A DNA stretch of 7,388 nucleotides, from the IMG/VR virus record IMGVR_UViG_2663762839_000012; one strand, written 5' to 3'. Below are positions 3,121 to 3,972 of this stretch, piece by piece. The first letter of the stretch is position 1. Every line of letters begins with the position of its first letter. The DNA is from a virus (lineage: Duplodnaviria > Heunggongvirae > Uroviricota > Caudoviricetes). The notes under the pieces were generated by a model, which was not told the DNA's origin, did not search any database, and was given only the letters and a program-made list of their open reading frames with translations. A program made the translations under genes and the position numbers.

Positions 3121-3234
3121 CGTGCAACTCCTCGTCATGGATCCGAAAACTTCCCCACTGTGAACGAAGGATCGTTGTGCGCTTTTCGTTCAGCACAACT
3201 AAGACTACTCATTTAAAATGCAAAATCAAATACC
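3121..3234 (-). promoter_or_regulatory. aceB 5' leader and proximal promoter/operator region, possibly truncated on its distal side by foreign DNA
   Basis: The aceB-sense sequence ...TTTGATTTTGCATTTTAAATGAGTAGTCTTAGTTGTGCTGAACGAAAAG...GAGGAGTTGCACG-ATG matches my recollection of the K-12 aceB upstream region. A possible -35-like TTGATT sits at 3224-3229 on the minus strand. A plus-strand ORF starts at 3235, only 115 bp from the aceB ATG. Exact promoter elements are not verifiable without alignment. Confidence 0.45.
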
Positions 3235-3504
3235 ATGTCAGAAATAAAATCGCTGGTCACTGCTGAAGCAGTGAAGGAAGTCCTGCGCTCTGAAGAAGTC
3301 AGAAGCGCACTGAAACAGCAACTTCGGCAGAACCTTGAGGCGCGTCTTGATGCAGAAGTGGATGCCATTCTGGATGAACTGCTGGGCGCACCGACTGTTC
3401 CGGAGCCGGAAGGCATTGCGGATGACAGTGCTGTTTCAGATGGCGTCGGGTCTCAGCCTGATGGTAGCAGTGAGCCTCAGCCTGACGGCGAAATGATGAT
3501 GTAA
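3235..3504 (+). CDS. Hypothetical acidic protein (89 aa) with a low-complexity acidic C-terminal tail; origin unknown
   Basis: ATG at 3235 is the first start after an in-frame stop at 3214-3216; stop TAA at 3502-3504. Codon usage looks coding-like (ctg, gaa, gcg bias). Predicted helical, charged N-terminal half and a C-terminal SQPDG...PQPDG near-repeat. No obvious Shine-Dalgarno sequence, and I do not recognise the family. Confidence 0.4.
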   Translation: MSEIKSLVTAEAVKEVLRSEEVRSALKQQLRQNLEARLDAEVDAILDELLGAPTVPEPEGIADDSAVSDGVGSQPDGSSEPQPDGEMMM

Positions 3505-3512
3505 CCATGCGC

Positions 3513-3552
3513 AGGGGCTGTCGGTGTGAGCTGATGCCCCTCTTGTTGTTGT
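3513..3552 (+). terminator. Weak candidate intrinsic terminator after the 89-aa ORF
   Basis: A 6-bp GC stem AGGGGC (3513-3518) / GCCCCT (3536-3541) with a 17-nt loop, followed by the U-rich tract CUUGUUGUUGUG. The loop is long, so this is marginal. Confidence 0.25.
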
Positions 3553-3576
3553 GAGCTTCCGGATTGCGGGAGACGG

Positions 3577-3972
3577 GGTATCTGGACCATCTGCCGCGGT
3601 GCCATCCTGGTGGATAGTAAACCTGTCGTCCCGGGCATGAAGTTGTCGAAGGAAAAATGCGACCAGGTCAACGCCATTGAGCGTGATAAGGCGCTGGCAT
3701 GGGTGGAGCGCAATATTAAAGTGCCGCTGACCGAACCCCAGAAAGCGGGTATCGCGTCATTTTGTCCCTATAACATTGGCCCCGGTAAGTGTTTCCCGTC
3801 GACGTTTTACAGACGGATTAATGCTGGTGACCGCAGGGGAGCATGCGAAGCGATTCGCTGGTGGATTAAGGACGGTGGCAGAGACTGCCGTATCCGCTCA
3901 AATAATTGCTACGGTCAGGTATCCCGGCGAGACCAGGAAAGTGCGCTGGCGTGCTGGGACATCGACAGATAA
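3577..3972 (+). pseudogene. 5'-truncated phage endolysin remnant, GH24 / T4-type lysozyme family (R21, P22 gp19, RrrD-like); lacks the N-terminal SAR/signal region and catalytic Glu-Asp
   Basis: Frame-1 translation from about 3577, GIWTICRGAILVDSKPVVPG...FCPYNIGPGKCFPSTFYRRINAGDRRGACEAIRWWIKDGG...ESALACW, aligns with the C-terminal ~130 aa of prophage lysozymes (RrrD: GVWTVCHGHTG...[39 protein letters not shown]...). Upstream there is an in-frame stop at 3532-3534 and no E-x8-D-x5-T catalytic motif. The only in-frame starts (GTG 3610, ATG 3637) lack an RBS and fall after the catalytic region. Stop TAA at 3970-3972. Confidence 0.7.

Follow-up and report, generated by a model that had tools for sequence, protein, structure and literature searches.

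In Escherichia coli K-12, the promoter-operator region of the aceBAK operon carries two boxes for the regulator IclR, which are placed at -52 to -19 (box II) and at -125 to -99 (box I) in the part of PMC2724298 that summarises the work of Yamamoto and Ishihama (2003). According to this same summary, box II prevents RNA polymerase from binding, and box I promotes the disassembly of the open complex (PMC2724298). The consensus site of IclR is TGGAAATNATTTCCA (PMC8222616), and both IHF and Cra have been reported as activators of aceBAK. Loss of iclR through an IS1 insertion (iclR::IS1), in experimentally evolved E. coli, raised the expression of aceB on glucose (PMC1779306), and natural variants of the aceB promoter seem to have been under selection for strong plasticity across environments (bioRxiv 10.1101/2021.07.18.452581). 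In 5,425 of the 5,426 complete E. coli genomes, moreover, metA and aceB are contiguous and their control region is structurally invariant. The spacer between these two genes is 268 bp long in K-12, close to the 270 bp or so given in an earlier note on the present DNA.

We analysed one window, that is, the whole stretch of 7,388 bp (positions w1 to w7388), which is an E. coli/Shigella-type sequence where an aceBA block is joined to the late region of a lambdoid prophage. Junction 1 links the aceB promoter to phage DNA, and junction 2 lies within the phage DNA itself. In our preferred reading, to which we give a probability of roughly 0.6, this is an operator-constitutive-like aceBAK allele that would use its own core promoter for transcription, without dependence on IclR, and that would have been made by strain-private illegitimate recombination with a decayed, Stx-type lambdoid prophage.

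Native ace genes and the phage remnant

The native part of the window starts with the REP-rich spacer between aceA and aceK (w1-184), followed by two intact genes on the minus strand: aceA, encoding isocitrate lyase (434 aa, w185-1489), identified from the list of open reading frames and from 99.9% identity to E. coli aceBA, and aceB, encoding malate synthase A (533 aa, w1519-3120), identified from the same list and from sequence identity. Over w1-3230, identity reaches 99.9% with three of the complete E. coli genomes and lies at 98-99% for most others. The closest complete relative is strain 14EC033 (L035), which differs from the window at four positions over this interval. The exact AceB protein is recorded in 274 blocks of the assembly collection, with metA upstream in 5/5 contexts among the matches listed. 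The left end of the window is the REP-element-rich spacer, and its right end falls inside a terminase gene that is common to many prophages. This start in REP elements, this end in a repeated gene and the odd length of 7,388 bp suggest that the window is one whole short contig of a draft assembly, with repeats at either end.

On the phage side, the foreign plus-strand open reading frame that the earlier note had placed from 3235 was identified as a phage DUF826 gene (89 aa, w3235-3504, plus strand; Pfam PF05696, E=3e-37), divergent from aceB. The idea that these 89 residues might belong to a core gene residing beside aceB is thereby refuted, this being a prophage gene, and the neighbour of aceB being metA in 5,425/5,426 genomes. 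In the intact prophages examined, a SASA-esterase gene (then DUF1378 in most of them) precedes DUF826, which is followed by the holin gene. In the window, DUF826 is deprived of its own upstream region, and both the late promoter and the native ribosome-binding context are gone. The interval w3228-3581 is 100% identical to many prophages and ends at junction 2, a 6-bp microhomology (GGGTAT, w3576-3581; positions 195-226 of the contig L034, see below). In comparison with the prophages L010 and L012, about 750 bp are deleted at this point, comprising the holin gene S, ydfR and the 5' part of the endolysin gene.

Downstream of this deletion, the plus strand carries the 3' remnant of the endolysin gene (w3610-3972, matching positions 27-125 of the Phage_lysozyme profile), a terminator-like hairpin (w4063-4095), the Rz spanin gene (w4454-4927; Pfam Phage_lysis, E=7e-50) with Rz1 embedded in it (w4680-4865), and the gene of a TonB_C-domain protein, a phage accessory "moron" (w5520-5846; Pfam TonB_C, E=1e-14). 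A promoter-like site (w5674-5647) lies antisense within this last gene. A DUF3950 (YlcI/YnfO-like) gene follows on the minus strand (w5978-6178), named after a homologue so annotated in the prophage L002. At about w6385-6396 stands what we take to be a lambda-like cohesive-end (cos) sequence, assigned by its likeness to the left end of lambda. The plus strand then ends (w6574-7388; Pfam Phage_Nu1, E=4e-101) with a lambda-type nu1 gene (w6574-7119) and the start of terminase gene A, which begins at w7094 and runs off the window. DUF826, the endolysin remnant, Rz/Rz1, nu1 and A are 97-100% identical to their counterparts in prophages. Because of the deletion at junction 2, this segment has neither a holin nor an intact endolysin; instead of a functional late region, it represents a defective remnant.

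Junction 2 was found in 0 of the complete E. coli genomes searched, and no record exists of the exact protein that the shortened endolysin reading frame (120 or 111 aa) would encode. A single match overall was obtained, in the IMG/VR contig L034 (IMG genome 2663762839), which carries junction 2 and matches the window at 563/564 bases over w3228-3791. Since L034 matches across junction 2, the phage remnant is genuine DNA, also present outside the window. Upstream of DUF826, this contig continues into ordinary phage DNA with no aceB fusion; as it carries junction 2 only, the loss of lysis genes happened separately from the fusion to aceB, which is the rarer event of the two. One complex event that would have made both junctions was rejected for the same reason, junction 2 occurring in L034 without junction 1.

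Identity to known prophages extends further to the right. The interval w3576-6425 is 99.7-99.8% identical to prophages of small, IS-rich, Shigella-looking genomes, and the sequence from w6355 onward matches the lambda-type nu1/A region of L009 at 99% identity. A mosaic joint is thus visible within w6024-6430, where the match of L010/L043 type persists to w6425 and that of L009 type begins at about w6355. The packaging modules of these relatives differ from each other, L010 having HNH/Terminase_2 and L043 nu1/gpA. Near-identical prophage late regions were observed in L036, L038 and L041, in genomes of 4.55-4.73 Mb that are rich in IS1, IS3-family and IS66 elements. In these three, the prophage adjoins genes that we read, from Pfam domains and sizes, as pepT and potAB, which on the K-12 map lie far from aceB. 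A location remote from aceB is therefore probable for this type of phage.

Position, rarity and origin of the junction at aceB

The breakpoint was placed by ungapped three-way comparisons between K-12 (L001), 14EC033 (L035) and the prophages L002, which is intact, and L034, the closest relative on the phage side. Native DNA upstream of aceB covers w3121-3230, i.e. 110 bp counted from the ATG (w3120, minus strand), and phage DNA starts at w3228, the two overlapping by a 3-bp microhomology (AAA/TTT, w3228-3230). Junction 1 (w3228-3230) thus joins position -35 of the aceB promoter to phage DNA, 5-7 bp upstream of the ATG of DUF826. Searches of phage collections, with hits mostly in Stx-converting phages, gave matches confined to w3228-3581 and reproduced the same breakpoints. 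This is in good agreement with the earlier note, which had located phage DNA within about 115 bp of the aceB start and the end of native sequence at about 3225-3235, the last native base being now set at w3230. Its suggestion that the control region is truncated or replaced was likewise borne out, colinearity with the reference strains stopping at that same base. Some partial similarity had also been noted beyond the breakpoint. Matches do exist there (9/23 positions over w3231-3253), but both sequences are AT-rich and we read this weak similarity as probably due to chance, not as residual homology.

Junction 1 was found in 0 of the 5,426 complete E. coli genomes, and its exact strings were found neither in GTDB species representatives, nor in JGI metagenomes, nor in the other IMG/VR sequences. 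The predicted reciprocal junction was not found in IMG/VR. Look-ups of exact proteins (aceB, DUF826, Nu1, a 74-aa open reading frame and DUF3950) returned ordinary contexts only, with no second occurrence of junction 1. The sole genome among the 5,426 in which metA and aceB are not contiguous, that of the laboratory strain E. coli ME8067 (NZ_CP028703.1, hit H130), is broken near the transcript start (about position 2400 of L001), not at -35, and it does not have the junction of the window. Literature searches for operator-deletion experiments at aceB, or for an aceB-prophage rearrangement in Shigella, yielded nothing relevant. The fusion of aceB to phage DNA is apparently strain-private and present in one assembly.

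Such uniqueness, against 5,426 complete genomes and all the other collections searched, is what would be expected if junction 1 were a chimera, formed during assembly or library preparation, of a real aceBA locus and a real prophage remnant; the 7,388-bp sequence, with REP repeats at its start and a terminase gene of wide occurrence at its end, does resemble a short draft contig. Graph assemblers, however, need long exact overlaps and do not join sequences via 3-bp microhomology, which implies real reads spanning the joint. The neighbouring junction 2, which has a similar microhomology signature, is moreover present in L034 as well, and the break at junction 1 leaves the core promoter precisely intact. 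An artefact of this kind is, in our opinion, quite improbable.

Regarding its origin, junction 1 looks like the product of illegitimate, microhomology-mediated recombination, since the join falls in mid-operon, among phage late genes, and is marked by neither a tRNA nor an integrase, an IS end or an att-like repeat. No tRNA was found in the window, nor any integrase or transposase reading frame (list of open reading frames, Pfam), and IS ends, IS-like repeats, target duplications and att-like direct repeats were absent around w2900-4200. Site-specific integration, which would have left an attL or attR site, was rejected: the join lies inside the late operon, with no integrase, tRNA or flanking repeat. 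An IS-mediated event was rejected as well, as there is no transposase, terminal repeat or target-site duplication, only the 3-bp microhomology. A transducing phage carrying aceB was also considered and rejected, no phage record spanning junction 1. That a plain local deletion brought aceB up to a prophage lying next to it seems less likely: in 14EC033, the closest relative, the 20 kb upstream of metA contain no prophage, and related prophages are located elsewhere.

Retained core promoter, lost operators and predicted expression

The transcript start of aceBA in K-12 was mapped by SMRT-Cappable-seq at NC_000913.3:4215403 (PMC6131387, supplement), corresponding to position 2404 of L001 and to w3195 of the window. 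Numbering may be off by 1-2 nt, because the mapped base is a T. The window retains the native aceB leader of 75 nt (w3121-3195, minus strand, the equivalent of the transcript start being w3195 ±1) and, upstream of it, the core promoter (w3202-3229, minus strand), with a -10 hexamer TAGTCT (w3207-3202), a 16-bp spacer and a -35 hexamer TTGATT (w3229-3224), both hexamers being deduced from the position of the transcript start. These hexamers are identical in the window, in K-12 and in 14EC033, and the last native base is position -35. Apart from one single-nucleotide polymorphism, the sequence from -35 through the ATG is the same in all three. On the aceB sense strand, this polymorphism is a private C-to-T change at w3127; it precedes the ATG of aceB by 7 nt and stands right after the GAGGAG Shine-Dalgarno sequence, in the 7-nt spacer between the two. 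It is one of the four differences from 14EC033 across w1-3230, and it was found neither in K-12, nor in 14EC033, nor in five other aceB loci, nor in any of the 5,426 complete E. coli genomes, where the best identity is 176/180, with none higher.

Upstream of -35, the operators are lost. With box II taken at the coordinates given in the published summary, its footprint would cover w3214-3247 (minus strand), of which w3214-3230 is native and w3231-3247 is phage DNA. The 15-mer core of this box, TGGAAATTGTTTTTG in the native sequence, has become CTGACATGGTATTTG in the window, with 4/15 native bases kept, and its perfect left half-site TGGAAAT has become CTGACAT. In both K-12 and 14EC033, the native site matches the IclR consensus at 10/14 positions, mainly through this perfect left half-site, and direct scoring revealed no site with at least 9/14 matches in w3100-3330. 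Direct scoring replaced a scan at up to 3 mismatches, which was uninformative because the native site itself carries 4 mismatches; its result does not depend on the numbering of the transcript start. The positions equivalent to box I, as placed in that summary, correspond to w3294-3320, which lie within the coding sequence of DUF826 and bear no resemblance to the native box. The metA terminator, metA itself and the AT-rich upstream DNA are all missing from the window, the AT content of positions -100 to -36 dropping from 0.85 in the native sequence to 0.52. Since all DNA upstream of -35 is phage-derived, the upstream sites of IHF and Cra must presumably have been lost too. The earlier note had considered that the distal operator might be lost or altered. 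Box I is indeed absent, together with the upstream half of the primary box II, including its perfect half-site. The truncation is therefore more severe than was then assumed: it extends right up to the -35 hexamer, at its upstream edge, and the core promoter survives.

An intact core promoter combined with a destroyed operator led us to propose an operator-constitutive-like allele. From a mechanistic point of view, recombination at the 3-bp microhomology would have joined the -35 region of aceBAK to a prophage that had already decayed, in the middle part of its late region, everything upstream of -35 becoming foreign and DUF826 pointing away from aceB. IclR would thereby lose its ability to occlude the promoter via box II and to dislodge RNA polymerase via box I, and aceBAK would be transcribed from its own core promoter without IclR control. 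With the inputs of IHF and Cra and the AT-rich DNA gone, expression would probably be flat across carbon sources and might lie below the fully induced wild-type level. This IclR-blind behaviour is predicted from sequence and presumes an iclR gene in the same genome.

The same losses may be taken one step further, to a promoter that is crippled and not derepressed, with low, uninducible expression of aceBAK and poor or no growth on acetate, as in a Shigella-like acetate-negative strain. A consensus promoter scan detected no promoter in the native K-12 region nor in the hybrid one, so that the aceBAK promoter is a weak-consensus promoter, with hexamers far from consensus. The decrease in upstream AT content (0.85-0.88 to 0.52-0.64) could reduce the strength of a promoter that has poor hexamers to begin with, and IHF and Cra are described as activators. 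The phage segment is, in addition, 99.7-99.8% identical to prophages of the small, Shigella-looking genomes mentioned above. On the other hand, iclR-null strains express aceBAK strongly, and IHF, which is said to act mainly by opposing IclR (a view reportedly put forward by Resnik and co-workers in 1996), would be needless once IclR cannot bind, if that is indeed its main role. Furthermore, aceB and aceA are fully intact, AceB being identical to the proteins of many genomes, and an A/T tract is still present in the hybrid upstream DNA (ATTTTATTT at about -55 to -47, judged against the UP-element consensus). We regard a crippled promoter as unlikely, albeit worth keeping in mind beside the operator-constitutive-like reading.

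Transcription might also come from elsewhere. No sigma-70-like promoter pointing into aceB was detected in w3050-3650, but a strong, near-consensus sigma-70-like site deeper in the phage remnant (w5674-5647, minus strand; TTCACA-16 bp-TATAAT, 11/12) faces aceB, with no minus-strand terminator revealed by the scan between the two. Read-through from such a site as the main source of aceBAK expression, which would place the operon under the control of phage sequence, is nevertheless very improbable. Promoter-like sites are no more frequent than by chance (4 found vs 4.9 expected in shuffled sequence), and the site is separated from aceB by 2.4 kb of antisense, untranslated sequence, over which Rho-dependent termination would be expected. 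The hairpin at w4063-4095 intervenes, and the native core promoter is intact.

As for the reason why this allele exists, a break at the very edge of -35 that drops both IclR operators and spares the core promoter, together with the private polymorphism at w3127, may evoke a selected cis-regulatory rewiring. An IclR-independent, retuned glyoxylate shunt would then have been fixed in the lineage, possibly along with the loss of metA, during adaptation to a host or niche. We hold this to be a doubtful proposal, decidedly less probable than the operator-constitutive-like reading itself. The significance of the allele would rise if the polymorphism at w3127 were compensatory, or if the promoter were functional and IclR-independent.

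Comparison with known systems

The fusion belongs to a familiar class, i.e. operator loss by a structural variant linked to prophage decay, observed here in a single strain, and it leaves current understanding unchanged. With the promoter-operator of K-12 aceBAK, the window shares the -35 and -10 elements, the region of the transcript start, the leader (with one polymorphism) and the genes of the operon; it differs from it by the absence of native DNA upstream of -35, namely the left half-site of box II, box I and metA. Should metA have disappeared in this event too, methionine auxotrophy would be expected of the strain.

Loss of iclR itself, as in the iclR::IS1 insertion of experimentally evolved E. 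coli (PMC1779306), has in common with the present allele the predicted IclR-free expression of aceBAK, including on glucose. The lesion described here lies in cis, in the operator, and would leave other IclR targets unaffected, whereas it also removes the upstream activator sites. An allele that keeps the core promoter and lacks both IclR operators would thus be, if true, the cis counterpart of iclR knockouts, and it could be used to separate the effect of IclR at aceBAK from its effects on other targets.

Operator-constitutive (Oc) deletions, such as lacOc, cause a cis-dominant loss of repressor-binding DNA. The window likewise has lost repressor-binding DNA and kept its core promoter, but by fusion to prophage DNA, not by a point mutation or small deletion, and its constitutive phenotype is a prediction.

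Finally, the phage segment resembles cryptic lambdoid prophages shortened by deletion (DLP12, Rac and Qin of K-12, as well as the late regions of Stx phages), with which it shares the order DUF826, (holin, ydfR), endolysin, Rz/Rz1, morons, cos, nu1 and A, in addition to the loss of lysis genes via microhomology deletions. It differs from them in that the boundary of the remnant is the promoter of a core metabolic operon, not an att site or an IS, and the fusion would, in this respect, illustrate how the decay of a prophage can rewire such an operon.
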